Shown here piece by piece: positions 1,154 to 63,892 of a DNA stretch of 64,000 nt. The translations under genes were made by a program, and so were the position numbers. Origin of the DNA: Candidatus Multiplicimicrobium inquinatum (GTDB lineage Bacteria; Omnitrophota; Omnitrophia; Omnitrophales; Aquincolibacteriaceae); the NCBI GenBank assembly GCA_002344825.1, contig DDUN01000038.1, positions 21,061 through 85,060 of the forward strand, written 5' to 3'. Position 1 is the first letter of the stretch; the number at the start of each line of letters is the position of its first letter. Below the pieces are notes generated by a model. It did no database searches, was not told the DNA's origin, and was given only the letters and a program-made list of their open reading frames with translations.

Positions 1154-2812
1154 CTAATTGTCTCGGTCTTCGGGATGAAGTTCCGTTTGAATGCGGTTAA
1201 TAAAAACCTGCTGAAGCATGGAAAAAAGATTCTGAAAAATCCAGTACAGTACCAATCCCGAGGGAAAAGACCAGCAAATGAACCCGAAGAAAAAAGGCAT
1301 GATATTCATAATCATTTGCTGTTCGGGCATGGACATCGTTTGCGGCATCATTTTTTGATAGCCGATTTGCGAAGCAACCATCAAAAAAGGAAGAATGTTA
1401 AGCCACTCGCCCAAAAACGGAATTTTAAACGGAAGCTGCATAAATTGATCTTGTGCGGAAAGATCCTGAATCCAAAAAATAAACGGCGCGCCATGCAGTT
1501 CGATCGCTTCCGGAAGCAGGCGGAACATTCCGATTAAAATCGGCAACTGGATTAACATCGGCAAACATCCTGATATCGGGTTCACCTTGTTGCGCTTATA
1601 AAGCTCCATGATTTCTTTTTGCGCGCGCTGCGGATCCTTTTTATATTTTTCCTGAATCGCTTTTTGCTTGGGCGATAAAAGCTGCATTTTTTTCATCGAC
1701 TTTGAGCTAATCAATGTCAGCGGAGCAAAAACGAGCTTGATTAAAAAGGTTAAAAGCAAAATGTCCCAGCCGAAGTTATAGGTAAACTGATGCAAAAACT
1801 TTAAAATCAAAAGCAGCCAAACTTTTGGCGCGCCAAAAAAACCGCGCGAAAGCACTGCCTGAAAACCGTCTTCAAAGCTCTTAAGCGTTTCATAGCGCTG
1901 CGGGCCGGCATAAATTTTAAACCGGACGGTTTCCCGCGAGCCGGGAGCAACGGTTAGCGGATCAAGATGGTTAGACATCATCACTTTTCCGTCTCTCGCT
2001 TCGGCACGGGTCGAAATAATTTTTTGATCGGGGCGGACAATCAAAGCGAAATAGCTTTTAACAAGCGCCGTCCATGCCGCGGGCTCGGAAACCCAAAAAC
2101 CTTTTTTTTCGATTTTTCCAGTATTCGCTGTTTTTAGCCCATTCGCAAAAACCATGGCATCAAAATATTCTCCGGGTTTGGGGTGTCCGCCAAGTGCGTG
2201 ATAATCAGCGCCGTAAATAAACTCGAGCGGATATGTTTTTTCGCGGGCAGAAAGATTTTCAATATCGATGCTGAGCTGAAGCGCGGGAGCGTCGGAAGAA
2301 AGCTGAAATTTTTTTGTCAGGCGAAAAGCGCCCGGCTCTTCATAGGCATAAACTGCTTCGTTTTCCGTTTTGCTCATGAGCTTAAAAGTAGAATGCGTTA
2401 AATGTTCTGCCTGCCCGCGAATTGCGACAGAAAAAATCCCGGGCAAATCCATGTCTCCCTGAAAGAAAGTGGTTTGCGTTAAATGTTCTCGTTTGGACTC
2501 ACCCTTAAACTCAAGCTGTGTGAGGGTTGCGCCGCGGTCGGAAAACTCAGCGAGCATGGTTTTGGTTTCTAATTTAAAAAGCGCCGCGGCGGAGGTTGGC
2601 AGCACTTCCGCTTTTTTTGCTGAAAAAGCACCGGCTTCTTCGGTTGCTTCAGCGGGAACGGAAGCTTTTTCAGAAAAAGCGGGCTTCGCTTCTTCTGCCG
2701 CTGGAGCTGGGGCCTGCGGCGGTTTAACTAAAGCAAAATAGGTAAACAACACCAGCGCGGAAAGGGCGATGGCAAAAAAATAATTTTTTTCAAATGGCTG
2801 GTTTTGATTCAC
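1154..2812 (-). CDS. yidC: Membrane protein insertase YidC/Oxa1 family.
   Basis: 552 aa. The N-terminal TM anchor is followed by a periplasmic domain. The C-terminal region has the 5-TM YidC core (…KQKAIQEKYKKDPQRAQKEIMELYKRNKVNPISGCLPMLIQLPILIGMF…LYWIFQNLFSMLQQ). It sits in the conserved rpmH-rnpA-yidC context. Confidence 0.93.
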   Translation of the reverse strand: MNQNQPFEKNYFFAIALSALVLFTYFALVKPPQAPAPAAEEAKPAFSEKASVPAEATEEAGAFSAKKAEVLPTSAAALFKLETKTMLAEFSDRGATLTQLEFKGESKREHLTQTTFFQGDMDLPGIFSVAIRGQAEHLTHSTFKLMSKTENEAVYAYEEPGAFRLTKKFQLSSDAPALQLSIDIENLSAREKTYPLEFIYGADYHALGGHPKPGEYFDAMVFANGLKTANTGKIEKKGFWVSEPAAWTALVKSYFALIVRPDQKIISTRAEARDGKVMMSNHLDPLTVAPGSRETVRFKIYAGPQRYETLKSFEDGFQAVLSRGFFGAPKVWLLLILKFLHQFTYNFGWDILLLTFLIKLVFAPLTLISSKSMKKMQLLSPKQKAIQEKYKKDPQRAQKEIMELYKRNKVNPISGCLPMLIQLPILIGMFRLLPEAIELHGAPFIFWIQDLSAQDQFMQLPFKIPFLGEWLNILPFLMVASQIGYQKMMPQTMSMPEQQMIMNIMPFFFGFICWSFPSGLVLYWIFQNLFSMLQQVFINRIQTELHPEDRDN

Positions 2813-3191
2813 TTTTTTCTCGATAGTTAAAAATTATTTCCAACAAATCCTGCTCGAGCTCCTGATAAGAAATTTTTTTATCTACATGTCTTGCGATTAA
2901 TACGCAGGCGGTTTGCTCAGGAAGAATGCCGTATTTTTTTCTGAAAGCCTCTCGAAGCTGCCGTCGCATTCGATTTCTCGCAACCGCACGCTTTGATTTT
3001 TTGCGGCTGATCACCACCGCGAGAAAGGGCCCTTTCTCGTTTAAAAGAGGGCTTACTTTTTCGGATGGAATAAGGCGAGCTAAAAGATGTTTTCCGCGAA
3101 ACAATAATCCGTGGTCTAAAACACAGCGGATCTGCTCATCTTTGCGTAAACGCAATGTTGGCTGAGCTTCGCCCTCTGTGTGATGGATCAA
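2790..3191 (-). CDS. rnpA: Ribonuclease P protein component.
   Basis: 133 aa, basic. Contains the RNase P protein signature region …[21 protein letters not shown]…. It lies immediately downstream of rpmH and overlaps the yidC start by 23 nt. No separate yidD ORF is seen. Confidence 0.88.
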
Positions 3192-3198
3192 GCGGTTG

Positions 3199-3325
3199 TT
3201 AAACGTTTACGCCCTTTTTTCCGGCGTCGCGCGAGCGTTTTGCGTCCGTCTTTTGTGCTCTTCTTCTTGAGAAAGCCGTGCTTTCTTTTTCTGCGCCGTT
3301 TTTTCGGCTGATATGTCCGTTTCAC
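3199..3325 (-). CDS. rpmH: 50S ribosomal protein L34 with a GTG start.
   Basis: Minus-strand translation is [41 protein letters not shown] (41 codons). This is the classic very basic L34 pattern. An AGGAGG RBS lies 5 nt upstream. The ORF is not in the six-frame track because of its size and GTG start. Confidence 0.85.
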
Positions 3326-3614
3326 CCGATCCTCCTAGATATAAAATCAAAAACGAACCCGCTTGATCAACAAGGTGATTTCTGTGGGTTCGCGCCGCGG
3401 ATTATAACAAAACATACCCGAATATCCAGCCTTTTTGTTCCGCAGCAGAAAGAACACGTGTTTTTTAATTATTTTTTTGGACATTTGTCTTTGTTTTTAG
3501 GTAGAATGCGCACCTTGATTTTATTAACTTTTGCCTGTTGATAAGTTGTTTATAGTTTGTTTCTTCTATACCTACACTTATCCACAGGTTATTAAAAAGC
3601 TGTTTATAACACTC
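3326..3614. promoter_or_regulatory. AT-rich rpmH-dnaA intergenic region with DnaA boxes. It is one of two candidate oriC/dnaA-promoter regions.
   Basis: A perfect consensus DnaA box TTATCCACA lies at 3578-3586. A one-mismatch box TGTTGATAA (reverse complement TTATCAACA) lies at 3536-3544. A further degenerate box TGTTTATAA is near 3601. There is a long AT-rich run around 3460-3530. The divergent rpmH and dnaA genes flank the region. Confidence 0.55.
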
Positions 3615-4958
3615 ATGTCAGCACCGCAAACAGAATCATCGGCCTTGGTTTGGGACAAGGTTTGCGCTTGTCTTAAGCGAGAGCTAAGTGAAAGATCCTT
3701 TCAAACCTGGTTTGGCCCCATTTCAATCAGCTCCCTCGAAGGCGCATCTGTCGCCCTGGCTGTTCCCGACAGTTATTACGGAAAATGGCTTTATGAACAC
3801 TATCAAAACCTGATTGAAAGCTCTTTTCAGGATGTTTTGGGTAAAAAAATGACTGTCTCCTATCTTGTTGTAGAGAAAGCACTTATACAAGAAAAGGGCC
3901 CTTCTTTACAGCCTGCTTCCGCGGCATCGGCACGGATTGATGGAATGAATCCTAACTATACCTTTGATTCTTTTGTGATTGGTCCCGGAAATCGCTTTGC
4001 TCACGCTGCTGCCACCGCTGTAAGTGATGCTCCTGCAAAGAATTACAACCCTTTGTTTGTTTATGGTCGCGCAGGGTTGGGAAAAACCCACTTATTGCAA
4101 TCAATCGCGAACGAAGTTAAAAATAAAAATCCACGCTTTAACGTTCTTTATATGTCAAGCGAGAAGTTTGTAAATCAACTTATAACATCAATTCAAACAA
4201 AAAAAACAGGTGAGTTTCGGGCGCGCTATAGAAATTGCGATCTTCTTCTTATTGATGATATTCACTTTATTGCGGATAAAGAAGCAACTCAGGAAGAGTT
4301 TTTTCACACTTTCAATACTCTCTATGATGCGCATAAACAAATTGTTGTTTCAAGTGATCGTCCGCCAAAAGAAATTCCCGGGCTTGAAGAGAGGCTTGTT
4401 AGCCGTTTTGCGTGGGGCCTTGTCACAGATATTCAGCCGCCGGACTTTGAAACGCGCGTCGCGATTTTAAAGAAAAAAATAGAAAAGGAAACGGTCGCGG
4501 TTCCGGACGATGTTGCTTATTTTATTGCGTCTAAAATTAAATCCAATATTCGGGAGCTGGAGGGCGCGCTTATTCGCGTTGTTGCTTATTGCACGCTGAC
4601 GGGAGCGATTTTAGATGTTAAACTTGCCGAATCCGTTTTAAAAGATTCCTTTCATGAAGAGTCTCAAAAGTTTTCTATAGAGGAAGTTCAAAAGGTGGTG
4701 GCGGAGTATTTTCATATTCATGTTGCGGATTTGCGTTCAAAAACACGGACGCGTTCGGTTGTAAAACCAAGACAGTATGCGATGTTTCTTATTCGTGATA
4801 TGACAAAGTATTCTCTTCCTGAAATTGGTGATTTTTTTGGGGGAAGAGATCACACAACCGTGCTTCATGCCTGTAAAACAGTAACAAATGAGCGGTTAAA
4901 AGATCCGGAAATTGCTAAAATGTTAGAGACGCTTAAGAATATGTTGAAGAAATCTTAA
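3615..4958 (+). CDS. dnaA: Chromosomal replication initiator protein DnaA.
   Basis: The protein begins MSAPQTESSALVWDKVCACLKRELSERSFQTWFGPI…. Walker A is GRAGLGKTHLLQSIAN and Walker B is LLLIDDIHFIADK. Sensor and DNA-binding domain motifs are KPRQYAMFLIRDMTKYSLPEIG…DHTTV. The track ORF starts further upstream at 3531 (MPVDKLF…). The ATG at 3615 is chosen because it matches the DnaA N-terminus and lies downstream of the DnaA box. Confidence 0.95.
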   Translation: MSAPQTESSALVWDKVCACLKRELSERSFQTWFGPISISSLEGASVALAVPDSYYGKWLYEHYQNLIESSFQDVLGKKMTVSYLVVEKALIQEKGPSLQPASAASARIDGMNPNYTFDSFVIGPGNRFAHAAATAVSDAPAKNYNPLFVYGRAGLGKTHLLQSIANEVKNKNPRFNVLYMSSEKFVNQLITSIQTKKTGEFRARYRNCDLLLIDDIHFIADKEATQEEFFHTFNTLYDAHKQIVVSSDRPPKEIPGLEERLVSRFAWGLVTDIQPPDFETRVAILKKKIEKETVAVPDDVAYFIASKIKSNIRELEGALIRVVAYCTLTGAILDVKLAESVLKDSFHEESQKFSIEEVQKVVAEYFHIHVADLRSKTRTRSVVKPRQYAMFLIRDMTKYSLPEIGDFFGGRDHTTVLHACKTVTNERLKDPEIAKMLETLKNMLKKS

Positions 4959-5090
4959 GTTATGAACAGCTTTCTTTTATTGAAAAAGGTTACTGTTAAA
5001 AGGGTTATTGTGGTTTTCCACATTTCCACAACCCCTATTACAACGACTACTTCTTTATATAAAAATTTAGATAGGAGCAGAAGATAGTAA
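4959..5090. promoter_or_regulatory. dnaA-dnaN intergenic region with a second DnaA-box cluster. It is an alternative oriC candidate.
   Basis: Overlapping boxes TTTTCCACA (5013-5021) and ATTTCCACA (5021-5029) are present, plus TGTGG just upstream. They are flanked by AT-rich sequence (ttctttatataaaaatttagatagg) that could serve as a DNA-unwinding element. Confidence 0.45.
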
Positions 5091-6188
5091 ATGGATATAC
5101 GCATCGATAAAAACGAATTATTGTCGAAAATTTCTTTAGGGGTGAATATCAGTTCTTCAAAAGCGACAACCCTTCCTATTTTAAGCAACCTCCTACTTGA
5201 AACTAAAAAAAATAAACTTCAAATTATTGCCACAGATATGGAAGTAGGTGTTTTAACTTCTTGTAGTGCTGAAATTAAAGAAGAAGGAAGTGTGACGGCG
5301 CCGGCAAGAAAATTTTATGACATCGTGAAAGAATTATCCGACGGAGATGTGGAGATTCAAGTATCAAAAAACCACACCGTTCAAATTAAATCCGGCAAAT
5401 CCGTTTTCAAAGTGATGGGAATGGATAAAGAAGATTATCCGCAGCTTCCGGAGCCGTCACTTGAAAACGCGATTGAAATGGAACAAAACACACTTAAAGA
5501 AGCGCTCCAACTTACTTCTTTTGCCGTTTCACGCGATGAAACAAGATATGTTTTAAATGGCATTTTAGTTTCATTTAAATCAGATATTTTTCGATGTGTT
5601 GCCACAGACGGAAGACGACTTGCATATTATGAGAAAAAACTTCCGAGTAAAATAAAAAAAGATATTGAAATTATTATTCCGAGTAAAGCCGTTCATGAAT
5701 TATCTAAACTTTTAGGGTGGGACGGAACCGTTCAAATTTCTGTTTTTCAAAACAAAGTTGTTTTTTGTGTCGCGAATACTTTTTTAAGCGCCACTCTTAT
5801 TGAAGGTAAATTTCCTAATTACGAGCAGGTGATTCCAAAAGGAAAAGGAACCACCGCTGAAATTAACAGAAATGAATTATTGCAATGCTTGCGTCGTGCC
5901 GCGCTTTTAACATCGACCGAAGCACCGGCTGTAAAAGTTGATTTTTTAAAAGGGCGCGTCATGATTACCGCGCGCACACCGAATTTAGGCGAAGCAAAAG
6001 AAGAAGCGGTTAGCCGGCACGAAGGCAAAGAAATGACAATCGGATTCAACCCTGATTATTTAATGGATGTTTTAAAAAATTTAGAAACGGATAATATTGT
6101 TTTTACTTTGAGTGATGCGGATAAGCCCGGTGTTGTGGAAGGCAAAGAAGGCTATCTTTACGTTATTATGCCGATGCAAATACACTGA
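5091..6188 (+). CDS. dnaN: DNA polymerase III beta sliding clamp.
   Basis: 365 aa with a three-domain clamp pattern. The N-terminus is MDIRIDKNELLSKISLGVNISSSK…LLLETKKNKLQIIATDMEVGV and the C-terminus is …YLYVIMPMQIH. It is in the canonical position after dnaA. Confidence 0.93.
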   Translation: MDIRIDKNELLSKISLGVNISSSKATTLPILSNLLLETKKNKLQIIATDMEVGVLTSCSAEIKEEGSVTAPARKFYDIVKELSDGDVEIQVSKNHTVQIKSGKSVFKVMGMDKEDYPQLPEPSLENAIEMEQNTLKEALQLTSFAVSRDETRYVLNGILVSFKSDIFRCVATDGRRLAYYEKKLPSKIKKDIEIIIPSKAVHELSKLLGWDGTVQISVFQNKVVFCVANTFLSATLIEGKFPNYEQVIPKGKGTTAEINRNELLQCLRRAALLTSTEAPAVKVDFLKGRVMITARTPNLGEAKEEAVSRHEGKEMTIGFNPDYLMDVLKNLETDNIVFTLSDADKPGVVEGKEGYLYVIMPMQIH

Positions 6189-6231
6189 CATGTTTTCCTC
6201 TGTGCCGAAGGCACAACCGGAGACGATGTAG

Positions 6232-6516
6232 ATGGAAGAAATGAAGGGGCTTGTCGGGCGGGTTTTGGCAGGGATGGTGGACCCTGGGTCGCCGCAAAAC
6301 AAACTATCGCAGGAATGGGAAAAAGTAGCGGGAAAAAAAATCGCCGCCTTCTCCAGACCGTTTGTTTCGAAAAAGAAAATTTTGTACGTCGAAGTTTCAG
6401 ACGGGGGATATGCGTTTGAGATTCGGCAAAAATACCAAGCGTCGCTTTTAAAGCGGGCGCAGGCATTGCTCGGCGAAGAAAATATTTTAGATATTAGAAT
6501 CATTGTTCGTCCTTAA
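6232..6516 (+). CDS. Small DUF721-type protein, possibly a DciA-like helicase-operator factor.
   Basis: 94 aa. It occupies the position between dnaN and gyrB that DUF721/DciA-like ORFs typically hold in dnaA-dnaN-(recF)-gyrB loci. A GGAG RBS is present. The assignment rests on context and size, not on a strong motif. Confidence 0.45.
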   Translation: MEEMKGLVGRVLAGMVDPGSPQNKLSQEWEKVAGKKIAAFSRPFVSKKKILYVEVSDGGYAFEIRQKYQASLLKRAQALLGEENILDIRIIVRP

Positions 6517-6520
6517 CTGA

Positions 6521-8962
<2,442 letters not shown>

Positions 8963-9035
8963 GGCTCTGAGCGCACAGCGCTCAACCGCCGACGAGCAAC
9001 ACTATTTTTAAAGAATAAAGCAGAGGGTACAAAGA

Positions 9036-11513
9036 ATGGCTGACGAAAAGAATCTTTACGCGATGAATGAAAAAATCATTCCGATTGCAATCGAAGATGA
9101 AATGAAAAAATCGTACATCGATTATTCGATGTCGGTTATCGTGGGCCGTGCTTTGCCTGACGTCCGTGACGGACTCAAGCCGGTGCATCGCCGCATTTTG
9201 TTCGCGATGAACGAACTGGGCTTTGCCTATAACAAACCTTATAAAAAATCCGCGCGTATTGTGGGTGAAGTGCTCGGTAAATTTCACCCCCATGGCGATA
9301 CCGCCGTCTATGACACGCTTGTGCGTATGGTGCAGGACTTTTCTCTTCGTTATCCATTGATTGACGGACAGGGAAACTTCGGGTCCATCGACGGCGACCG
9401 CGCCGCGGCGATGCGTTATACCGAAGCGCGTTTGGCGCAAGTCTCTAACGAGCTTTTGGAAGACATCGACAAGAACACCGTTGATTTTGTTCCGAACTTT
9501 GACGAATCGCTGAAGGAGCCAACCGTGCTTCCTTCCCGTATTCCGAATTTGCTTGTGAACGGCTCCGCCGGTATTGCGGTGGGTATGGCAACGAACATTC
9601 CGCCGCATAATTTAAACGAAGTGGTCAGCGGTATTTTAGCGACCATCGAAAACCCCGATATCACCATTAAAGATTTGATGAAGCATGTGAAAGGGCCGGA
9701 CTTTCCGACCGCGGGAACGATTATGGGCCGGGACGGAATTCGCTCGGCTTATGAAACAGGTCGCGGCAAAGTTTTGATCCGCGCGAAGGCTGTGATTGAA
9801 TCAGGCCCCAAAAAAGAAGCCATCGTTATCACCGAAATTCCGTATCAGGTCAATAAAACCAATTTGATCGAATCGATCGTCGGTCTTGTTGAATCCAAAA
9901 AAGTCGAAGGCATTTCCGATATTCGCGATGAATCCGACCGTGACGGAATGCGCGTTGTTATCGAGCTGAAGCGTGACGCGAACGCTCAGGTTGTTTTGAA
10001 TCAGCTGTATAAACATACCCAAATGCAGCAGACGTTCGGCATTATTATGCTTTCGCTCGTGAAAGGGCAGCCGCGCGTTCTGAACTTGAAACAAATGATC
10101 GAATACTTCATTGATTTTCGCGTTGAAGTGATCATGAAGCGCACGAAGTTTGATCTTGAGAAAGCGGAAAAACGCGCCCATATCTTAGAGGGTTTGAAAA
10201 TCGCGGTAGATAACATCGACAAGATTATCAAGATCATCCGCGGCGCGAAAAACCCGGAAGATGCGAAAAATGAATTGATCAAACAATTCAAGCTCTCGGT
10301 GCTTCAGGCGCAGGCGATCTTAGAGTTGCAGCTCCAAAGATTAACCCAGCTTGAGCGGCATAAGATCGACGAAGAATACGCCGAGCTTCTCAAGAAAATC
10401 AGCGAATTGAAATCTATTTTGAAGAGCCGTCAAAAAGTTCTTCATATAATCAGCGAAGAATCCAAAGAGCTTGTTAAGAAAACCGGCGATGAGCGGCGCA
10501 CGCAAATTGTGGCCGCGGAAAAAGAAATCGACATCGAAGATTTGATTGTTGAAGAAGATGTTGTGATCACGCTTTCGCACGCAGGCTACATCAAGCGCAT
10601 TCCGGTTTCCTCTTACCGCAAGCAGAATCGCGGCGGCTCCGGCGTGAACGCGGCTGGCATGAAAGACGACGATGATTTCATCGAGCATTTGTTCCTTTGT
10701 TCAACGCATGAAACTATTTTGTTCTTCACTAACACGGGCCGTGTTTATTGGCGCAAGGCTTATGACATTCCGCAGGCCTCCCGTATCGCGAAGGGTAAAT
10801 CCATCGCGAATGTGTTGGCGCTGAATCCAACCGAAAAGATTCAAAGCTTCCTCAAGGTGAAAGAGTTTGATGATAAACGCTTTGTGGTCATGATTACGAA
10901 GAACGGTATTATCAAGAAGACGCGCCTTGTGCATTATTCACGTCCGCGCGCGGGCGGCGTGCAGGCGATTACGCTGCGCGACAAAGACGAGCTTGTTTCG
11001 TGCATGATTACCACCGGCGAAGACACGATTTTTATCGCGTCCCGCGAAGGTATGGCGATTCAGTTTAGCGAAAAAGACGCGCGTGAATTAGGCCGCACGG
11101 CATCCGGCGTGATGGGAATGCGCCTCGATAAAAAAGATTACGTGATCGCGGCTGAATTAACACAGCCCGAATCAACCGCGCTGACAGTTACCGAATCCGG
11201 TTACGGCAAGAAAACGTATTACAAAGAATACCGTCTTCAATCCCGCGGCGGCAAAGGTGTCATCAACGCTAATGTCACCGATAAAAACGGCAAAGTCGTG
11301 AATGTCATTACCGTAACCGAAGACGATGAAATTATCGTCATGACGGATAAGGGCATGGTTGTTCGCAGCGCGGTAAATCAGATCCGCACAACAAGCCGCA
11401 ATACTCAGGGCGTGCGTATTATCCGCCTGAAAGACGGCCATAAAGTTGTTTCCGCTGCGCGCGTGGTTGCCGGCGAAGATGACGGCGAAGCTGAGCTTGA
11501 TCTGACAAAATAA
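9036..11513 (+). CDS. gyrA: DNA gyrase subunit A.
   Basis: 825 aa. It contains …[26 protein letters not shown]… (the active-site Tyr region) and [10 protein letters not shown]. The C-terminal beta-pinwheel repeats include a GyrA-box-like QNRGGSGV. Confidence 0.97.
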
Positions 11514-14516: not shown

Positions 14517-14581
14517 CAATTATTTGATGTCATCATTGTCGGCGGAAGCTATGCGATTCTTGTGAGGTGAAAACATTGTGA

Positions 14582-14606
14582 GGAGCGAGTGGCCGACCTG
14601 AAGTGA
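14582..14606 (+). repeat. Conserved 25-mer (GGAGCGAGTGGCCGACCTGAAGTGA). This is the 3' core of repeat family X. Here it is upstream of tRNA-Ser(TGA).
   Basis: It is identical or near-identical to 19048-19070 and 22399-22423, which lie inside the tRNA-linked X elements. Confidence 0.7.
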
Positions 14607-14691
14607 TCGGCGCGACTAGCTCGAATTTCGTTCAATAGCGCTCCATTCCAGGTCTCTCCTCGAGCAATATTTTCACACAAGCACCTGCAGG

Positions 14692-14697: not shown

Positions 14698-14719
14698 CAG
14701 TTATAATTTTGCTCGTCGC

Positions 14720-14806
14720 GGAGAGGTGGCAGAGCGGTTGAATGCGGCAGTCTTGAAAACTGTTATACCCGCAAGGGTATCGGGGGTTCGAATCCCTCCC
14801 TCTCCG
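14720..14806 (+). tRNA. tRNA-Ser (anticodon TGA), class II.
   Basis: GGAGAGG/CCTCTCC acceptor stem. Anticodon stem-loop is GCAGT-CTTGAAA-ACTGT. Long variable arm is TATACCCGCAAGGGTATC. T-arm is GGGGGTTCGAATCCCTC. The discriminator is G. Confidence 0.85.
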
Positions 14807-14924
14807 TTCTTAAAGATGCCGGCGATGGCGGCGTTACGCTCCTTCAAATTTTTTCAACGCACATTTTCAGTGCGCCTCAAAAATTTTCGGTCGCAAGCCT
14901 TGCCCTCACCGGCATCTTTAAGAA
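14807..14924. mobile_element. MITE-like element Y, 118 bp, bounded by perfect 16-bp terminal inverted repeats. It is inserted exactly at the 3' end of tRNA-Ser(TGA).
   Basis: TTCTTAAAGATGCCGG (14807-14822) pairs with CCGGCATCTTTAAGAA (14909-14924). The interior shares a core (…CGCCTCAAAAATTTTCGGTCGCAAGCCTTGCCC…) with the second copy at 22480-22598. No coding capacity is evident. Confidence 0.5.
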
Positions 14925-15162
14925 CGAGGCTTGAAGGGATTCGAAGCAAGCCCGCGCCGACCTTATGGGAGGAAAAGCGTTTCGAGCAAAATAAGTCGAA
15001 CGCGTCAGCGGGCGGGTGGGGCTGCGCAGCGAGCTGCTGCGAGCGAAGTAGCCGAATCCCTTCAATTGAAAATTAAAAGCAAACGAGAGAGAATGCATGA
15101 GGGGGGTTAATCCCTCTTATTGCTCTATCTATTTATAAAAAGAAAAACCCAACATACATAAA

Positions 15163-18720: not shown

Positions 18721-18749
18721 TTTACAAAAGCGGTAGATTTGCCTATACT
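18721..18749 (+). promoter_or_regulatory. Sigma70-type promoter (TTTACA-N17-TATACT) upstream of tRNA-Arg.
   Basis: Same architecture and near-identical -10/leader as the promoter at 16371-16399. Confidence 0.55.
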
Positions 18750-18788: not shown

Positions 18789-18862
18789 GCGCCCGTAGCT
18801 CAATTGGATAGAGCATCTGACTACGGATCAGAAGGTTTATGGTTCAACTCCATACGGGCGCA
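18789..18862 (+). tRNA. tRNA-Arg (anticodon ACG).
   Basis: GCGCCCG/CGGGCGC acceptor stem. D-arm is GCTCAATTGGATAGAGC. Anticodon stem-loop is TCTGA-CTACGGA-TCAGA. T-arm is TATGGTTCAACTCCATA. The discriminator is A. 74 nt. Confidence 0.85.
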
Positions 18863-19130
18863 TATTCTTTTTCTGAAAATGACCGTCTGCAGCGCACAAA
18901 TCCACTCGCCTACGCCTTGTATTCAGGTCCTTTTGAGAAAACGAATGATAAATGGATGGAGCTGAAGTGAGCCGCGCAATTTATAGGGCTTTCGCGGAAT
19001 AAGAAACAGACCTAATGTCAGATCCGCACGCAGCGAAGCCCAGGCGCGGCGAGTGGCCGACCTGAAGTGAGTGCGGCTGATTAAGCCGACATGAACAAAA
19101 GGCGCCAACTCCATACAGGCGCATATTTTT
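18863..19130. repeat. Repeat family X copy 1, about 245 bp, inserted after tRNA-Arg. It ends in a partial duplicate of the tRNA-Arg 3' end (19107-19123).
   Basis: The element shares TTTTCTGAAAA…GTCTGC, CCTTTTGAGAAAA, a GATGG…GAAGTGAGC block, a TAATGTCAGAT block and the 25-mer GGCGAGTGGCCGACCTGAAGTGA with 22179-22460. Its end is …GGCGCC followed by AACTCCATACAGGCGCATATTTTTCTG. That matches the tRNA's own 3' end plus flank (AACTCCATACGGGCGCATATTCTTTTTCTG). Confidence 0.65.
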
Positions 19131-19230
19131 CTGTTTATATCTTCTCCAGCGAATATAATTTGTTTGTGACCCATTTTTTTGAGAGCCCTTTTTTTAGACT
19201 GATTGTTTTTAAACAAAATCATTTTGTGTT

Positions 19231-21504
19231 ATGACAGAGCCGCAAAAACCTTCCGAGCCAACAGATTATTCTGACGGGCAATCCAGCTTCCAAGATCTAA
19301 CGCAGGATATTCGCCGGCTGCTATATCAACAGCAGCAAGAAACAGAAGGCGAAAGGAAAAAAAACGCAGAGTTACTGGAAATTTCTAAAAATCTTCAAAC
19401 GCTTTTAAATGAAGCGGTCTCGGATCTCGAACAAGAAAAAATCCGCCTGGCAGAAGCAAAAAGAGAGCTTGGCGGAAGCGAGCAAAGCCTTTCTGATTTT
19501 AAAGAGGCGTCGGCGAAACAAATTCGCGAAAATCTTCAGAAAATTACCGACCACGAACGCGACATAGAAGCTTTAAAAAAAGCAAAACTGGATAACGAAA
19601 AAGAAATCAAAGAAAAAACAGAGGCAATTTGCCGACTAGAAAGCAAGGCTGCGGAGCATCTCGCTGCGCTCCAATCTCAATCAAGCGAAAAAGAACGCGA
19701 GCAAGCTCAGGCTCAGGCAAAACAGCAAGAATTAGAAAACGAGCTTCGACAGACACGGCTTAAAAATGAAGCCCTCGAAAAAGAGCGCGCGGAGGCAGAT
19801 GCGAAGATAAGCCAAATTAAAGAAGCAAGCACAAAAGAAATTAGCGAGGCAAGGGAAAGATCTGCTGAACACCAAGCCTTGGCCGAAAAGCTTGCTGATG
19901 AAAACGCGCTCCTGAAAAAAGAAACTGAAAAACAAAAAGCAGCTTATGAAGCCGAGCTCGAAATTAAAAAATCAAAAATCATAGAATTGGAAAAAACAGG
20001 CGAAGATTTGCGGCTAGCCGTAGAAAATAAAGGGCGCGAGATTGACGGTGCTGTGAAAGAAAAAGCAGAGTCTCTTGCGAGCGAAAGAGCGCAAGCTCAA
20101 ATAAAGCATAAAGAGCTGCAAGACAGGCTCGACGCATTAAGCCGTGATTATGACGCGACGGCCGCAAAGTTAAAAGAAGCGGAGCAGAAAAGCGCTGTCG
20201 ACACCGGAGTTATCGAGCAGCAAAAGAGGGAGGCTGAGGAAGCAGCTTCAAACCTGGCTCAGCATCGCGAATTACAAACGCAGGCGGAAAAAAAGTTGGC
20301 GGAGCAGTCCGCGCAAAGCGAACAGCAGTTGCAAGCGCTCCGGGCTGAAAAAGAAGATTTAATCCAGAAACATAAAGAGCTGGAAGGCAAACTTGATGCC
20401 CTGAGCCGTGATTATGCCGCGGCGACCGCGAAATTAAAAGAAGCGGAGGAGGAAAGCGCCGCCGCCGCCGAAGTTATCGAGCAGCAAAAGAAGGCGGTTG
20501 CGGAAACCGCTTCAAATCTTACTCAGCAACGCGAATTAAATGCACAGGCAGAAAACAGACGGGTAGAGCAGTTGACGCAGAGCGAACGGCAACTTCAGGC
20601 ATTGCAGGGCGAAAAGGAAGATTTGGTTCGAAAGCACAAAGAGTTGCATGAGAAGCTTGAAGCGGCAACGCGTAATTTTCTGGAAACAACCGCAAAACTT
20701 ACAGAAGCGGAAGAAAAAAACAGGGTCAATTTAAATGATCTAGAAAATCAAAAAAAAGAACATGCCGAAGCGATTTCCAGGCTGGCGGAGCAACAAAATC
20801 TGAGTATTGAAAAAGAAGCGGCGGTACGCCAGCTAGCTGAAAATAAGCGCCAAATCGAAGTATTGGGCAGTGAAAAGGACGGACTCGCTCAAAAGCAAAA
20901 ATCTCTGGAGGCTAAACTGGTTGAGCTTCAGGTTAGAGAAGAAGCTTTGCGCCAAGAAAAACAGAAACAGCATGAGCTTTTGGACGAACACATTAAAAAA
21001 GAACAGGCGTTGCGCGATAAGTATTCAGCACTTGAGGCGGTTAAAAACACTATGTTTACCGGCTGGAAAGATGAGCGGGAGCGACTTGCCCAGGCAACCG
21101 CTTCCCTTACAGATCTTCAAAGCAAGCTTGTAGCGGCAGAAGAAGAAGCGAAGAAATGGAAAGAATCCGCCGCTCTTCTTCAAACACAAAATTCGAAAAC
21201 GGGAACGGAAAATAAAGTTTGGACGATCGGAGCGGAAGAAGACGGCTTGAAAAATAAAAATCAACTTCTTTCGCAGGCGCTTGATTCCGAGCGGGCGCGC
21301 GCAAAGAAAATGGAAGAGGACTTAGCGCGGTTGCGGCAGGTTATAGCGCTTGGGCAGCCGAAAGCGAGCGCGCCGGAAATAAAGTCCGCTATTTTGCCAG
21401 TAGCGCCTAAGCCGACGACAGGCAAAGACAAGGTGAATGGGTTGGAGCTCATTTTGGCGCTGGAAGATAAAAAAGAACCTCCGCAAAGCGGCAAAACAAA
21501 ATAA
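19231..21504 (+). CDS. Coiled-coil protein (757 aa) with ~88-aa tandem repeats.
   Basis: Almost entirely heptad-type and E/K/Q/A-rich. At least three tandem repeats are present: HKELQDRLDALSRDYDATAAKLKEAEQKSA…, HKELEGKLDALSRDYAAATAKLKEAEEESA… and HKELHEKLEAATRNFLETTAKLTEAEEKN…. Confidence 0.7.
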   Translation: MTEPQKPSEPTDYSDGQSSFQDLTQDIRRLLYQQQQETEGERKKNAELLEISKNLQTLLNEAVSDLEQEKIRLAEAKRELGGSEQSLSDFKEASAKQIRENLQKITDHERDIEALKKAKLDNEKEIKEKTEAICRLESKAAEHLAALQSQSSEKEREQAQAQAKQQELENELRQTRLKNEALEKERAEADAKISQIKEASTKEISEARERSAEHQALAEKLADENALLKKETEKQKAAYEAELEIKKSKIIELEKTGEDLRLAVENKGREIDGAVKEKAESLASERAQAQIKHKELQDRLDALSRDYDATAAKLKEAEQKSAVDTGVIEQQKREAEEAASNLAQHRELQTQAEKKLAEQSAQSEQQLQALRAEKEDLIQKHKELEGKLDALSRDYAAATAKLKEAEEESAAAAEVIEQQKKAVAETASNLTQQRELNAQAENRRVEQLTQSERQLQALQGEKEDLVRKHKELHEKLEAATRNFLETTAKLTEAEEKNRVNLNDLENQKKEHAEAISRLAEQQNLSIEKEAAVRQLAENKRQIEVLGSEKDGLAQKQKSLEAKLVELQVREEALRQEKQKQHELLDEHIKKEQALRDKYSALEAVKNTMFTGWKDERERLAQATASLTDLQSKLVAAEEEAKKWKESAALLQTQNSKTGTENKVWTIGAEEDGLKNKNQLLSQALDSERARAKKMEEDLARLRQVIALGQPKASAPEIKSAILPVAPKPTTGKDKVNGLELILALEDKKEPPQSGKTK

Positions 21505-21515
21505 TTTTGGATTAA

Positions 21516-22016
21516 ATGATGGAAAACATACACGAGCATTTTATGAAGGAAGCGATCAAGCAAGCGGTGATTGCTTTTGAACGCGGAGAAGTTCCCGTTG
21601 GCGCGGTCGTTGTTTATAAAAATAAAGTTATTGCGCGCGGGCACAATCAAATGGAAACCTTACATGATCCGACAGCTCACGCGGAAATGATCGCAATGAC
21701 CGCTGCTTCCGAGAAGTTATCGGAAGGGAGCGATAAACATCGCGGTTCTTTGGAAGGCTGTACGCTTTATGTCACGATGGAGCCTTGCCCGATGTGTGCT
21801 GGGGCGCTTGTGATTTCAAAATGTTCCAGCGTCGTTTATGGCGCGCGGGATGTAAAAGCCGGAGCCTGTGAAAGCTTGTACCGTATCCCGCAAGATGACC
21901 GCCTCAACCATCGCCTTGCTGTTCTGGGCGGCGTGATGGAAGAAGACGCAAAAACACTTTTGCGGGAGTTCTTTGTGACACTACGGAATAATAAAAAGAA
22001 TCTGCCGCTGAATTAG
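21516..22016 (+). CDS. tadA: tRNA adenosine(34) deaminase.
   Basis: CDA-fold zinc motifs HAEMIAM and PCPMCAGAL. The N-terminus is [17 protein letters not shown]…VPVGAVVV. 166 aa. Confidence 0.9.
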
Positions 22017-22086: not shown

Positions 22087-22178
22087 GGAGAGGTCGCATA
22101 GCCTGGTCTAGTGCGCACGCCTGGAAAGTGTGTGAACCTGAAAGGGTTCCGTGGGTTCGAATCCCACCCTCTCCGCCA
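22087..22178 (+). tRNA. tRNA-Ser (anticodon GGA), class II, with CCA encoded.
   Basis: GGAGAGG/CCTCTCC acceptor stem. Anticodon stem-loop is CACGC-CTGGAAA-GTGTG (one G·U pair). Long variable arm is AACCTGAAAGGGTTCC. T-arm is GTGGGTTCGAATCCCAC. Discriminator G plus CCA. Confidence 0.8.
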
Positions 22179-22479
22179 TTTTCTGAAAAAGGGCGTCTGC
22201 TTCGCCGCGCTCTTCACTCCCTTGTGCGGCGTAGGTTTCACTACGCCTCCGCGGTCGTTTGATCGCATCTCGCATTCAACCCTTTTTGAGAAAATAGCTT
22301 TTGATAGATGGGATTCGAAGTGAGCGACGCCTTATTTTAAACTGCGCCGAATATAAATCTGACTTAATGTCAGATTTACAAGAGGCGCTTTCTTTATAAG
22401 GAGCGAGTGGCCGACCCGCAGTGATTGCCGCTGACTAAGCGGACAAGAACGAAGGGCGCCGTTAATCCCACCCTCTCCG
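22179..22479. repeat. Repeat family X copy 2, about 280 bp, after tRNA-Ser(GGA). It ends in a partial duplicate of that tRNA's 3' end (22461-22479).
   Basis: It has the same block order as copy 1 and includes the 25-mer GGAGCGAGTGGCCGACCCGCAGTGA (22399-22423). It ends …GGGCGCC followed by GTTAATCCCACCCTCTCCG, which matches the tRNA 3' end GTTCGAATCCCACCCTCTCCG. Confidence 0.65.
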
Positions 22480-22598
22480 TTCTTTATTCTGCCGGCCATG
22501 GCTGCGTTACGCTCCCTCAAATTTTCTCGACGTACACTTTTAGTACGCCTCAAAAATTTTCGGTCGCAAGCCTTGCCCTGACCGGCATCTTAAAGAAC
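22480..22598. mobile_element. MITE-like element Y copy 2, with degenerate terminal inverted repeats. It lies directly after the partial tRNA 3' duplicate.
   Basis: TTCTTTATTCTGCCGG…CCGGCATCTTAAAGAA ends. The interior is ~85% identical to 14807-14924. Confidence 0.45.
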
Positions 22599-22710
22599 GT
22601 ATGGTTCATGGGATTTGAAGTGAACCGCTCTATTATTTAGTGAAAATAAGCCCTAAGAACAAAGACGCGGCGGACCTAACTATGAATCCGTTTTTCGGCG
22701 ATGGGTTATC

Positions 22711-32764: not shown

Positions 32765-32804
32765 AAACCGCACCAAAAAGCTTATCTGCGGCGTTGCGCG
32801 CTGC

Positions 32805-32885
32805 GCTTCCTTGTGCGGCGTATTTTTCTCATACGCCTCCGCGGGCGCTTGCGCGCGCCTTGCATCTAAACCTTTTGATGCGGCT
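32805..32885. repeat. Repeat family X fragment (5' module only) in the corA-rlmN intergenic region.
   Basis: CCTTGTGCGGCGTA…TACGCCTCCGCGG…GCATCT…AACCTTTTGATG matches 22225-22300 of X copy 2. It includes the conserved GGCGTA/TACGCC hairpin. Confidence 0.55.
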
Positions 32886-63344: not shown

Positions 63345-63761
63345 ATGACGGCTAAATATTTTTCTTATTCTGACGGAGGCGCGCGCGGTAATCCCGGACC
63401 CGCGGCAATCGGTGTTTTGATTTGCGATGAAAAAGGTACAGCGATTTTTGAGCAAGGGGAAACCATCGGCGACAACACAAACAATGTTGCGGAGTATCAG
63501 GCGGTGATCAAGGCATTGCAAACCGCCGAAGATCTCGGAGCGCATGAAATTGTGCATCATATGGATAGCGAGCTTGTAACCAAGCAATTGCGCGGAGAGT
63601 ATCGCCTGAAAGCGGAGCATCTTCGCCCTTTTTTTCTCAAAGTCAAAGAGCTTGAAAAAAAATTTAAAAAAATCACTTATATTCATGTTCCGCGTGAGCA
63701 CCCGCAAATGCGGAGAGCCGACCGGCAAGTCAACCGTGCTTTGGATGAGGCGGGCTTTTAA
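63345..63761 (+). CDS. rnhA: Ribonuclease HI-family protein.
   Basis: The RNase H catalytic pattern is present (SDGGARGNPGPAAIG…NNVAEYQAVIKAL…HHMDSELVTKQL…REHPQMRRADRQVNRAL). 138 aa. Confidence 0.75.
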   Translation: MTAKYFSYSDGGARGNPGPAAIGVLICDEKGTAIFEQGETIGDNTNNVAEYQAVIKALQTAEDLGAHEIVHHMDSELVTKQLRGEYRLKAEHLRPFFLKVKELEKKFKKITYIHVPREHPQMRRADRQVNRALDEAGF

Positions 63762-63892
63762 ATGAGCACCCAACTTACACGACTAAAAGAAGTGTAAGTT
63801 GCGCGTGCGAATTTATCCCGAGCGAACGACTTGTGGTGAGCATGGTCGAACCAAGTGAGTCGAGGGATCGGCAAGTTTAAAAAGGAAATGTG

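Follow-up and report, generated by a model that had tools for sequence, protein, structure and literature searches.

The 3' end of tRNA-Arg(ACG) occurs twice at this locus of the window (the whole 64-kb stretch of DNA that was analysed), once in the gene itself and once downstream, and this raises the question of whether the DNA between the two copies was inserted by an integrase. The original prediction took this to be the case, describing an intact tRNA, a repeat element of about 245 bp and a one-mismatch copy of the 3' half of the tRNA with its flank as an att-like scar. The parts of the locus are as follows.

18789..18862, + strand: intact tRNA-Arg(ACG), called by ARAGORN and Rfam tRNA (68.7 bits)
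18846..18875, + strand: repeat copy 1, AACTCCATACGGGCGCATATTCTTTTTCTG, tRNA-Arg positions 57-73 and 13 nt of trailer
18868..18941, + strand: H, a long hairpin with ends TTTTCTGAAAA...TTTTGAGAAAA, an independent intergenic repeat outside X
18952-19106, + strand: element X at tRNA-Arg in its proper extent, a full copy
18956..18966, + strand: anti-arm of Arg X, ATGGAGCTGAA, reverse complement of tRNA-Arg 54-64 with one mismatch; 5' strand of closing helix P1
18964..19106, + strand: X core, GAAGUGAGCC...GGCGCC, a three-way junction
18971-18977/19044-19050, + strand: P2, helix of the three-way junction
19054-19063/19100-19107, + strand: P4 arm, helix of the three-way junction
19071-19093, + strand: P3 hairpin, with tandem G.A on its flanks
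19049-19070, + strand: invariant stretch GCGAGUGGCCGACCUGAAGUGA in the core of Arg X
19107..19133, + strand: repeat copy 2 (DR), tRNA-Arg positions 57-73 with G67>A, and trailer

The repeated 3' end of tRNA-Arg(ACG)

Both ARAGORN and Rfam, whose end calls vary by 1 nt (18788/9-18862/3), place an intact tRNA-Arg(ACG) ahead of the insert, with T54 of the T-loop at 18843 and the discriminator A73 at 18862. The predicted copy of its 3' half is borne out by alignment and by shuffling: AACTCCATACGGGCGCATATT (18846-18866) reappears at 19107-19127 with one mismatch and has no further match in 64 kb, and none of 100 dinucleotide shuffles produced a repeat match of this type. The single mismatch falls within the tRNA-derived part (19107-19123 against tRNA-Arg positions 57-73), and over their whole lengths the copies at 18846-18875 and 19107-19133 differ by this G>A and a 3-nt CTT indel. 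Given that the repeat starts at T-loop position 57 and extends beyond the discriminator into the trailer, it represents a duplication, at the DNA level, of the 3' segment of the gene.

The 245 bp between the copies does not form the single repeat element that had been predicted. It consists of two unrelated repeats, H (18868-18941) and the element X of about 150 nt (18952-19106), of which X is indeed itself repeated. Relatives of H lie at 22176-22300 and 32785-32876 of the window and at five of the compared loci (L002, L008, L011, L022 and L023); several have no X as neighbour, some, such as the copy at 32785-32876, are not associated with a tRNA, and the H region carries a 42-nt indel relative to the orthologous tRNA-Arg locus.

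X is a conserved RNA fold

The X insert is a conserved, covarying RNA fold. RNAalifold of nine short copies gave P2, P2a, P4 and P3, with compensatory changes in 12 of the 25 pairs, and among 31 CM-aligned copies double changes were found at 20 of 25. In the same 31 copies 96.6% of the pairing cells were occupied by pairs, compared with 77.7% after shuffling (none of 500 shuffles was as high), and pairing dropped to 35-38% with the partners slid; furthermore, a switch between CCU/AGG and CCC/GGG was consistent in 22 of 22 copies. Within the X family G.U and A.C were counted 37 and 3 times respectively, which assigns the fold to the tRNA-sense strand, as RNA. A 5S-rRNA-like reading, prompted by the same helix order, the size of about 115 nt and the GAAGUGA motif, was dropped because no Rfam 5S match was obtained even at E up to 10.

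The fold also accounts for the repeat that had been called att-like: it is the 3' strand of the closing helix of X and pairs with an antisense copy that the original prediction had missed. This helix, P1, measures 6-12 bp in 22 of 22 copies, and in Arg X the DR continues past it as a single-stranded tail that has the sequence of the acceptor 3' strand. X at tRNA-Arg is retained at the orthologous site of a relative (84% identity in TadA) that has the same genes on either side, the conserved motifs being identical between the two and the loops changed. A decayed island remnant, as had been suggested for the insert, is at odds with a conserved covarying fold that is retained at an orthologous locus, but the insert is, as was also proposed, small and non-autonomous.

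In total, three tRNAs of the window are occupied by X, and there are two remnants. Beyond tRNA-Arg these are:

22305..22479, + strand: second full X, subtype B (bounds also given as 22305-22472), after tRNA-Ser(GGA) (22087-22178) and an H copy (22179-22300); anti-arm TGGGATTCGAA, DR AATCCCACCCTCTCCG at 22464-22479
22480-22599, + strand: Y, a hairpin element directly after the Ser(GGA) DR
after Y, to 22640, + strand: truncated older X' (anti-arm and GAAGTGAACCGC) at tRNA-Ser(GGA)
14931..15065, + strand: divergent X'', behind tRNA-Ser(TGA) (14719-14807) and Y (14807-14926), CM score 30.5 bits, E 1e-6; anti-arm AGGGATTCGAA, DR GAATCCCT
14554..14652, + strand: X remnant, 3' half only with a decayed DR, upstream of tRNA-Ser(TGA)

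The DR at tRNA-Ser(GGA) is an exact copy of the 3' end of that tRNA (16/16), and the order of units there is tRNA-H-X-DR-Y-truncated X', in which the Y and X' unit (22480..22640) is homologous to the unit behind tRNA-Ser(TGA). In X'' of the latter, P4 has been swapped for a compensatory GGCUGC/GUAGCC.

A family of elements behind tRNA genes

The X family comprises about 30 copies, from the three window loci, Omnitrophota MAGs and metagenome contigs. An exact 20-22-nt core motif was seen behind tRNAs only, at eight Omnitrophota MAG loci, one 'Planctomycetales' MAG locus and about 15 metagenome contigs, and the tRNAs bearing X are those for Met, Thr, Ala, Glu, Arg, Leu, Gly, Val, Lys, Asn, Tyr, Asp and Ser. 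All share one layout, which runs from the tRNA through a short spacer, an anti-arm and the three-way-junction core to a sense copy of the tRNA; the anti-arm is the reverse complement of the T-loop, T-stem and acceptor 3' strand of its own tRNA, and the sense copy extends from tRNA position 56/57 to 73 or further. In 25 of 27 full copies X starts 7-170 nt past the tRNA 3' end on the tRNA strand, with spacers down to 7 nt at the short-type loci. The element is present in multiple copies per genome, at differing tRNA operons and with tandem units: the MAG GFS_12873 has at least five, at Ala, Leu, Arg-CCG, Arg-ACG and Ser-GGA.

Both arms match the local tRNA. The median exact match to the own tRNA is 11 nt for the anti-arm and 10 nt for the DR, and 0 to the tRNAs of other loci; CCA is present in the DR only if the tRNA gene encodes it. 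At two loci (L004 and L009) the tRNA stem contains G.U pairs while the anti-arm is Watson-Crick throughout, indicating that the anti-arm is a templated complement and not a copy of the 5' strand of the T-stem. The cores of X group by genome, and the arms track the local tRNA. At another locus (L029) X breaks off after AGTGA at DNA with two small ORFs; a Cas1 Pfam match there (E 0.002, below the cut-off) was judged spurious.

Rfam at the gathering threshold matched tRNAs alone in the entire window, and at E up to 10 (8.6 kb, 200 nt of X and a short-type copy as queries) it returned tRNAs, noise and a weak match to RtT. This last match gave the lead to the tRNA-linked repeats (TLRs) of E. coli. 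A search of viral contigs gave one chance match to the exact core, within a coding sequence, and nothing for a looser core with gaps. Topic and core-string searches of the literature found no such element described in Omnitrophota, and X is best explained as a member of a previously undescribed Omnitrophota family of tRNA-linked structured RNA elements.

Possible insertion by site-specific recombination

X elements are stacked in tandem, and they are gained and lost. Stacked units occur at L009, L010, L006 and the tRNA-Ser(GGA) of the window; X is present at tRNA-Lys(UUU) and tRNA-Gly(UCC) in some of the more distant lineages and absent from them in others, and the sole close relative compared (L011) has X at both tRNA-Arg(ACG) and tRNA-Ser(GGA). 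The DR includes trailer sequence, with 24-45 nt in L014, L010 and L009 and 27-30 nt at tRNA-Arg of the window. This raises the possibility that X is a tiny circle or decayed island that was inserted into a tRNA gene by a tyrosine or serine recombinase acting in trans, with the crossover in the T-loop, so that a replacement tRNA 3' end was brought in and the original one was left as attR. A direct repeat that starts in the T-loop and includes the trailer is the geometry expected of a Campbell-type insertion, stacking at tRNA-Ser(GGA) places the older unit displaced downstream, as such insertion would, and the differing presence of X between lineages is compatible with it. X thereby resembles the prophages, ICEs, islands and integrase-less derivatives that integrate at tRNA genes, which are likewise bracketed by a direct repeat of the tRNA 3' segment from the T-loop, leave the upstream tRNA intact and stack in tandem at one tRNA.

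However, insertion of this kind is unlikely, and the reasons are of two sorts. First, a tyrosine or serine integrase was found neither in the scanned ORFs of the window nor as a recurrent gene at about 25 X loci. Pfam scans of 26 window ORFs (those of at least 170 aa, two giant ORFs aside) turned up neither an integrase nor a transposase or RT, and the window, with dnaA as neighbour, belongs to the core chromosome; when the ORFs of the roughly 25 loci were clustered, no recombinase recurred and the recurrent genes were syntenic housekeeping genes only. One pair of records (L016/L024) has an X without a tRNA, in an island-like stretch with Mrr and MNT/HepT genes and with a tyrosine integrase 4.3 kb off, which would favour the recombinase, but a phmmer search with the L016 integrase against the ORFs of all loci matched nothing else. 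Second, a covarying fold with a G.U strand asymmetry is unexpected for protein-binding arm sites, an antisense arm matched to the tRNA is foreign to attP sites, cores cluster by genome and arms by local tRNA, and the E. coli TLRs share the layout and have no known integrase. Unlike the integrative elements of tRNA genes, the X insert is about 110-250 bp and without integrase, and it is an orthologously retained, covarying RNA fold with an extra antisense copy of the target. Of the predicted att scar there remain the true duplicate of the 3' end with its trailer, the stacking and the variable presence, and not the recombinase; in practical terms, a small insert with a duplicated tRNA 3' end does not by itself amount to an integrase footprint.

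Possible readings as catalytic RNA, intron or guide RNA

Another alternative would place the activity in the RNA. The three-way junction could be a small ribozyme that cuts or joins at the boundary between core and DR, where P4 meets P1, with the anti-arm as a substrate guide for the tRNA T-arm, making X a mobile or processing element that is aimed at T-loops at the RNA level. Hammerhead-type ribozymes cleave at the position that corresponds to the P4/P1 junction on the 3' strand, and it is exactly at this junction, on the 3' strand, that the conserved core of X gives way to tRNA-derived sequence. The core further has invariant junction nucleotides and tandem G.A motifs, and the arms are exact templated complements of the tRNA. 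In common with the hammerhead and other small three-way-junction ribozymes, X has purine-rich conserved junction strands, G.A pairs that extend a helix and a variable outer helix set by the flanking sequence.

The core nucleotides of X differ from those of the hammerhead type, and a catalytic X is, on balance, distinctly improbable. Where the hammerhead core has CUGANGA and GAA, the junction strands of X read GAAGUGA and GAG, and the Y of CCYG is base-paired, which leaves no free core base. No Rfam ribozyme matched a 200-nt query at E up to 10, and the covariance models for hammerhead, twister, pistol, hatchet, HDV-like and hairpin ribozymes gave no match to X at that limit. Moreover, there is no RT nearby, no tRNA interrupted by X was found, and the extension of the DR into the unprocessed trailer indicates copying from the gene and not from a mature or cleaved tRNA. 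Two narrower readings were rejected. When upstream sequence was spliced to the DR, as for X being an intron or insertion within a tRNA, ARAGORN reported only the upstream tRNAs that were already intact; and taking CUGAAGUGA...GAAC for a hammerhead is contradicted by the covariation of its Y with a distant R and by the strands, which at this point form a two-way and not a three-way junction. We see only a slight chance that the three-way junction constitutes a small ribozyme of a new type, or the RNA subunit of an unknown RNP, which acts at the boundary of core and tRNA-derived 3' strand while the anti-arm binds the T-arm and acceptor 3' strand. If it were so, TLRs, those of E. coli included, would belong to, or be the remains of, a class of RNA-level elements directed at tRNA T-loops, for the purpose of mobility or of exchange or repair of tRNA 3' halves.

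Since X contains both a sense and an antisense copy of its target, and since its scaffold is followed by a 3' segment of 17-18 nt identical to a genomic target beside the TTC of the T-loop, it might also be viewed as a scaffold like an omega-RNA, crRNA or bridge RNA, in which the DR (the 3' 17-18 nt), the anti-arm or both select tRNA genes as the target of a TnpB/Cas12-like nuclease or IS110-type recombinase. This is very improbable: the candidate guide is base-paired to the anti-arm in P1 and has decayed freely in its distal portion, the two 'guides' cover nearly the same sequence, unlike the half-sites of a bridge RNA, no TnpB, Cas12, IscB or IS110 gene was present in the scanned window ORFs or recurrent in the loci, and no Rfam guide-RNA family matched.

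A model for X

The best reading, which we regard as reasonably probable, is that X is a passenger RNA of tRNA operons whose closing helix and tail mimic a tRNA 3' end and which has spread by recombination at that end. X would be read through from the tRNA promoter, on the tRNA strand. At tRNA-Arg the only promoter-like site on the + strand ahead of X is:

18721..18749, + strand: promoter-like site TTTACA-17-TATACT, about 40 nt upstream of tRNA-Arg

and from tRNA-Arg to the end of X no promoter-like or terminator-like site was found on this strand. The transcript would fold into the three-way junction, with P1 formed by the anti-arm and the DR, and P1 together with the single-stranded tail (acceptor 3' strand, discriminator and the same trailer) would imitate the 3' end of the neighbouring tRNA. 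Through this mimicry the enzymes that cut and trim tRNA 3' ends may also free and delimit X as a discrete, stable RNA. If X has a cellular role, the invariant junction and the G.A-rich internal loops would be its working part, probably a platform for docking protein or RNA and less likely a catalytic centre.

Some copies fit such a passenger RNA less well. At L007, L028 and the Ser-GGA copy of L011 a good intrinsic terminator lies between tRNA and X, so that read-through would be limited there. The tail and outer P1 have decayed in L006, L007, L020 and L028 and in the Arg copies of both genomes, which suggests that selection on the tRNA-end mimic is weak or intermittent. Furthermore, given that a processing mimic need not equal the upstream tRNA, the identity may reflect origin alone.

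At the DNA level, recombination within the tRNA 3' segment may have duplicated and stacked a unit of tRNA 3' segment, spacer and X and carried it from one tRNA gene to another. The anti-arm may be kept exact by template-switch correction of a quasi-palindrome whose other half is the adjacent tRNA 3' end or the DR. We infer this route because such mutational mechanisms are known.

Comparison with known tRNA-linked and tRNA-derived RNAs

The tRNA-linked repeats of E. coli have been known since 1978 (Egan & Landy 1978; Rudd 1999). To our knowledge they have no accepted function or origin and are treated as an enterobacterial curiosity. They are the RtT RNA of Rfam (RF00391), with rttR in the tyrT operon and RrA/B/F behind 5S rRNA. 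The consensus outer helix of RtT, GgGaaGG with CCuuCcC, is an anti-arm against a DR, and in our own scan both arms were detected in the tyr, arg and lys TLRs of E. coli. In E. coli 22 TLRs are spread over 10 tRNA or rRNA operons, and the last 18-19 nt of each reproduce exactly the 3' terminus of the tRNA or 5S that precedes it. They form part of the operon transcript, from which they are processed, and it has been suggested that the repeat serves as a processing signal for RNase E; they have been assigned no function and are, as far as known, not products of an integrase (PMC8144298).

In its layout X is the architectural counterpart of these repeats. As in the TLRs, it lies directly 3' of a tRNA in the same orientation, its final 17-19 nt equal the 3' end of the upstream tRNA from T-loop position 57-59, it is closed by an upstream antisense arm paired with this repeat, its core recurs in different tRNA operons, each time with arms that correspond to the tRNA next to it, and it occurs as 1-5 tandem units per locus with no associated mobility gene. 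The two differ in host (Omnitrophota for X, Enterobacteria for the TLRs) and in the size of the core (95-150 nt against about 55-110). X differs further in its fold, a three-way junction that includes a long P4-P3 rod, and in its anti-arm, which exceeds that of the TLRs in length and exactness (up to 15 nt, including the complement of the T-loop); in addition, CCA is not always part of the X repeat.

Homology between the two is not demonstrable from sequence. RtT (RF00391) scores 133-138 bits on four E. coli tyrT units and 13.7 bits on X (E = 3.1, against a gathering threshold of 45), with the helices out of register. In the opposite direction, the Omnitrophota CM has the four E. coli tyr TLR units as its top matches, at only 6-11 bits, and did not find the arg and lys TLRs. 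Part of the tyr TLR score comes from tRNA-derived flanks in the CM. As neither sequence nor CM similarity is significant, the likeness may come from common descent or from convergence.

X may also be set beside the small RNAs from spacers and trailers of tRNA operons, such as 3'ETS-leuZ of E. coli, since it would likewise come from a tRNA precursor and be freed by tRNA-processing nucleases. RNAs of this type are unique trailer sequences that act as sponges; unlike them, X has a repeat family, a copy of the tRNA 3' end, an antisense arm and a conserved core of several helices. The design of the TLRs is now seen in a distant, uncultured phylum, with a core that is larger, much better conserved and strongly covarying, so that a chance product of operon duplication is an improbable explanation of the layout. 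The X family thereby provides a second, independent data set in which tRNA-linked repeats can be compared, and its copies are concrete RNAs for tests of processing, protein partners or catalysis.

Duplication of the tRNA-Arg 3' end and its genomic setting

The 3' half of tRNA-Arg(ACG) is duplicated together with its downstream flank, as the original prediction held: the 21-mer AACTCCATACGGGCGCATATT at 18846-18866 recurs with one mismatch at 19107-19127, and has no further match elsewhere in the window or in 100 shuffles. Including the trailer, the repeat comprises 18846-18875 and 19107-19133, starting in the T-loop at tRNA position 57 and spanning the 3' strands of T-stem and acceptor, the discriminator and then the trailer. 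The predicted single insert of ~245 bp resolves instead into two unrelated repeats, a long hairpin (H) and the tRNA-linked element proper (X). Further copies in the window were sought with a profile and a covariance model.

Features of the window
1154-11513, replication-origin gene cluster: yidC (minus strand), dnaA, dnaN, gyrB, gyrA, then serS
14554-14652, X 3' remnant
14807-14926 and 22480-22599, Y, a 120-nt element with 25-nt terminal inverted repeats (CGTTCTTAAAGATGCCGG...)
14931-15065, divergent X behind tRNA-Ser(TGA)
18789-18862, tRNA-Arg(ACG), intact; ARAGORN and Rfam concur
18868-18941, H, between tRNA-Arg and X
18952-19106, X behind tRNA-Arg(ACG)
19231-21504, coiled-coil ORF, 757 aa, with a tandem 264-nt repeat (75% identical) at 20104-20631
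21516-22016, TadA-like tRNA adenosine deaminase gene, 2.6 kb from tRNA-Arg(ACG)
22179-22300 and 32785-32876, further H copies
22305-22472, second full X, behind tRNA-Ser(GGA)
about 22600-22640, truncated X copy
36202-52665 and 54110-61930, giant ORFs of 5487 and 2606 aa; related ORFs in L017 and L022 (L numbers denote fetched loci)

Given that the window begins at the origin gene cluster, with the tRNAs following serS, the tRNA/X cluster lies in the origin-proximal core chromosome. Beyond the tRNAs are an Rrf2 regulator, coiled-coil proteins, the TadA-like deaminase, NorB and the two giant ORFs. tRNA-Arg(ACG) is presumably the substrate of this deaminase, and the linkage of the two genes is also kept in L011 (Omnitrophota MAG GFS_12873), where the homologue of the 757-aa coiled-coil ORF is far longer, at 1943 aa. 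The sole promoter-like site preceding X is upstream of tRNA-Arg, with no terminator-like site between it and X.

H is an intergenic repeat distinct from X, 75-125 nt long with the ends TTTTCTGAAAA...TTTTGAGAAAA, found with or without a tRNA nearby: the copy at 32785-32876 lies between two protein genes, and several related contigs also have copies apart from tRNAs (H occurs in L002, L008, L011, L022 and L023). At tRNA-Arg it differs from the orthologous locus by a 42-nt indel. In these genomes H resembles an element of the REP/MITE type; at two window loci it was inserted between tRNA and X. The two Y copies of the window are 88-90% identical to each other, and both lie directly 3' of the tRNA-Ser 3' end or its duplicate and 5' of an X.

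A family of elements matched to their tRNAs

The invariant 22-mer GCGAGTGGCCGACCNNNAGTGA retrieved 10 loci from species-representative genomes (8 Candidatus Omnitrophota MAGs and 1 'Planctomycetales' MAG, whose locus is syntenic with an Omnitrophota contig) and 18 metagenome contigs, and nothing real from viral contigs. The tRNAs preceding X are those for Met, Thr, Ala, Glu, Arg, Leu, Gly, Val, Lys, Asn, Tyr, Asp and Ser. With the exception of four chance matches inside coding DNA, every copy follows one plan: tRNA, spacer, antisense arm, GAAGUGA, core and sense tRNA copy. The spacer is 7-35 nt in short-type loci and elsewhere holds a hairpin or terminator, or an H or Y repeat. A weak covariance-model match at 63747-63821 (19.7 bits, E 0.002) lies in intergenic DNA that contains GAGCGAACG and GAACCAAGTGAG motifs and lacks a nearby tRNA; it could be a chance match or a degenerate relative.

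The antisense arm is the exact reverse complement of its own tRNA from T54 to position 64-68 (to 72 in L017), and the sense copy begins at position 56/57, after the GGCGCC that terminates the core. The median exact match to the own tRNA is 11 nt for the arm and 10 nt for the sense repeat, and 0 to the tRNAs of other loci; paired together they form a helix, P1, of 6-12 bp in 22/22 copies. In L004 and L009 the T-stem of the tRNA contains G.U pairs, yet the arm is fully Watson-Crick to the 3' strand; the arm is a templated complement, not a copy of the T-stem 5' strand. The copy in L016/L024 retains a matched P1 although no tRNA lies within 9 kb upstream, and X is therefore a self-contained unit.

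Some copies have unusual surroundings. That of L016 3717-9910 (= L024) lies in an island-like stretch, preceded by genes for a tyrosine integrase and an Mrr restriction endonuclease with two unknown ORFs between them, and followed by an MNT/HepT toxin-antitoxin pair. In L029 (855-1420) the X behind tRNA-Asn breaks off directly after ...GGGAGTGA, at the P3 position, where foreign DNA carrying a pair of short overlapping ORFs (77 and 72 aa) interrupts it, and in L028 a hairpin insertion of ~60 nt splits the tRNA 3'-end duplicate behind tRNA-Glu (GAATCCCCT|...|TAGGGACGCCA).

Fold of X

The consensus fold that RNAalifold predicts from nine short copies is a three-way junction. From 5' to 3', P1 is followed by joining GAAGU and G.A/A.G, by P2 enclosing the 6-bp hairpin P2a, by a joining G and by P4 (UGGC-c-G-a-CCY paired with RGG-C-GCC-R57), beyond which come a 3x3 loop GRA/GNA, G-C and U-A pairs, a tandem G.A and the hairpin P3. 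Standard pairs occupy 96.6% of cells in 31 model-aligned copies against 77.7% when shuffled (0/500 shuffles reach it), pairing falls to 35-38% when partners are slid by 1-3 columns, and 20/25 pairs show double, compensatory changes, in an alignment that, being fitted to the model, is biased toward the structure. The unfitted MAFFT/RNAalifold result nevertheless agrees, as does inspection by eye of the P4 switch, consistent in 22/22 copies (12 with CCU..AGG, 10 with CCC..GGG). For the X at tRNA-Arg, P2, P4 and P3 emerge from free energy alone (z = -2.3). G.U pairs outnumber A.C pairs by 37 to 3 (21 to 3 excluding the U-R57 pair), and the structure is therefore that of the tRNA-sense strand, as a transcript would have. 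Invariant in the consensus of 27 copies are GAGC, GCGAGUGGCCGAC, AGuGA, GA and GGCGCC. X is a multi-copy, covarying RNA fold on the tRNA strand, and the 3' part of the neighbouring tRNA supplies the sequence of its closing helix and tail.

The tRNA-derived sequence starts exactly at the end of the P4 3' strand. This coincidence of the core-repeat boundary with the three-way junction makes a ribozyme working there an attractive alternative; the fold, however, fits no known ribozyme core and the repeat includes unprocessed trailer. Given that the 'guide' is base-paired and no effector is present, X is unlikely to act as the guide RNA of a nuclease or recombinase.

Orthology and turnover

The window and L011 share the order DUF4197 gene, tRNA-Arg, X, coiled-coil gene and tadA, with TadA 84% identical, and the tRNA-H-X-repeat arrangement is orthologous throughout, with identical conserved motifs and changed loops. 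The cores of the two Arg orthologues are 86% identical, those of paralogues within GFS_12873 75-86%. At tRNA-Ser(GGA) the core subtype differs between the two genomes and an odd GUU junction is common to both; at tRNA-Lys(UUU) and tRNA-Gly(UCC), X is present in some lineages and absent in others.

The sense repeat often runs beyond the discriminator position N73 into the trailer (24-45 nt in L014, L010 and L009), so its template was the gene and not mature tRNA. Stacking of units also occurs: tRNA-Ser(GGA) is followed by H, X, repeat, Y and a truncated X, the last three being homologous to the tRNA-Ser(TGA) 3' end, Y and divergent X. A second, decaying unit is present in L009 and L010, and in L006 a second X lies between a decayed tRNA-Leu copy (5') and an intact tRNA-Leu (3'). 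X has been duplicated together with the tRNA 3' part, and no mobility gene is local. Given the trailer copying, stacking and lineage-specific presence, the sequences argue that the tRNA 3' segment, spacer and X are duplicated and turned over as a unit at the DNA level through exchanges within the tRNA 3' segment.

Direct repeat and stacking would be accounted for by the integrase-made att scar of the original prediction. This reading is improbable: it leaves the fold, the antisense arm and the E. coli precedent unexplained, as well as the lack of a recombinase; among 26 window ORFs (a set without the two giant ORFs), none matched an integrase, a transposase or a reverse transcriptase in Pfam. 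X is real, and of more interest than an att scar.

Proposed working and comparison with E. coli tRNA-linked repeats

By analogy with TLR/RttR/RrB, and given the missing promoter and short spacers, X is probably transcribed within the tRNA precursor, where P1, tail and trailer would offer the tRNA 3' maturation nucleases a second, equivalent site; X would therefore be freed as a discrete RNA. Its functional surface would be the invariant junction and G.A-rich loops, possibly loop-E or K-turn-like platforms. Terminators between tRNA and X in some loci are a weak point of processing from a precursor, as are the decayed tail and outer P1 of several copies for mimicry of a tRNA end. Exchange between the direct repeats, whether by gene conversion or unequal crossing-over, may keep the sense repeat tRNA-like. 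The arm and the neighbouring tRNA 3' end, or the duplicate of that end, make up a quasi-palindrome; such sequences are known to mutate by intramolecular template switching, which could bring the arm to exact complementarity. In agreement with this proposal, the arm in L021 and L004 fits the selected tRNA better than it fits the drifting repeat.

Rfam RtT RNA matches X weakly (13.7 bits, below threshold), a lead to the tRNA-linked repeats (TLRs) of E. coli. In E. coli K-12, 22 TLRs are spread over ten tRNA or rRNA operons, 1-5 per locus, and the last 18-19 nt of every one match the upstream tRNA or 5S rRNA 3' end exactly; three (RrA/B/F) arise by processing of the rRNA transcript and are bound by Hfq and CsrA, recognition of the repeat by RNase E was proposed by the authors, and no function has been assigned (PMC8144298). 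The operons compared included tyrT, serV-arg and lys-val (L030-L033). In the outer helix of the RtT consensus, GgGaaGG/CCuuCcC, the copy of the tRNA 3' end pairs with an antisense arm, as in P1 of X. A scan located such an arm, together with the repeat, in the E. coli units tyr (GGGGAAGGAT), arg (GGGAGGAT) and lys (GTGaAGGAT); the core that TLR units share between their tRNA-specific arms is AACGTTGC-N4-GCAACGGCCCGAAGGGCGAG-hairpin-AGT. The short lys units, of ~72 nt, allow a cloverleaf-like drawing in which P1 and three hairpins meet at a four-way junction. On the tyr units the X covariance model reaches no more than 6-11 bits, partly from tRNA-like flanks, and it does not match the arg or lys units; a sequence relationship is not demonstrable. 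No comparable element in Omnitrophota is described in the literature searched. X and TLR have the same architecture, and among elements of the tRNA-linked-repeat kind X is a new, well-structured variant.
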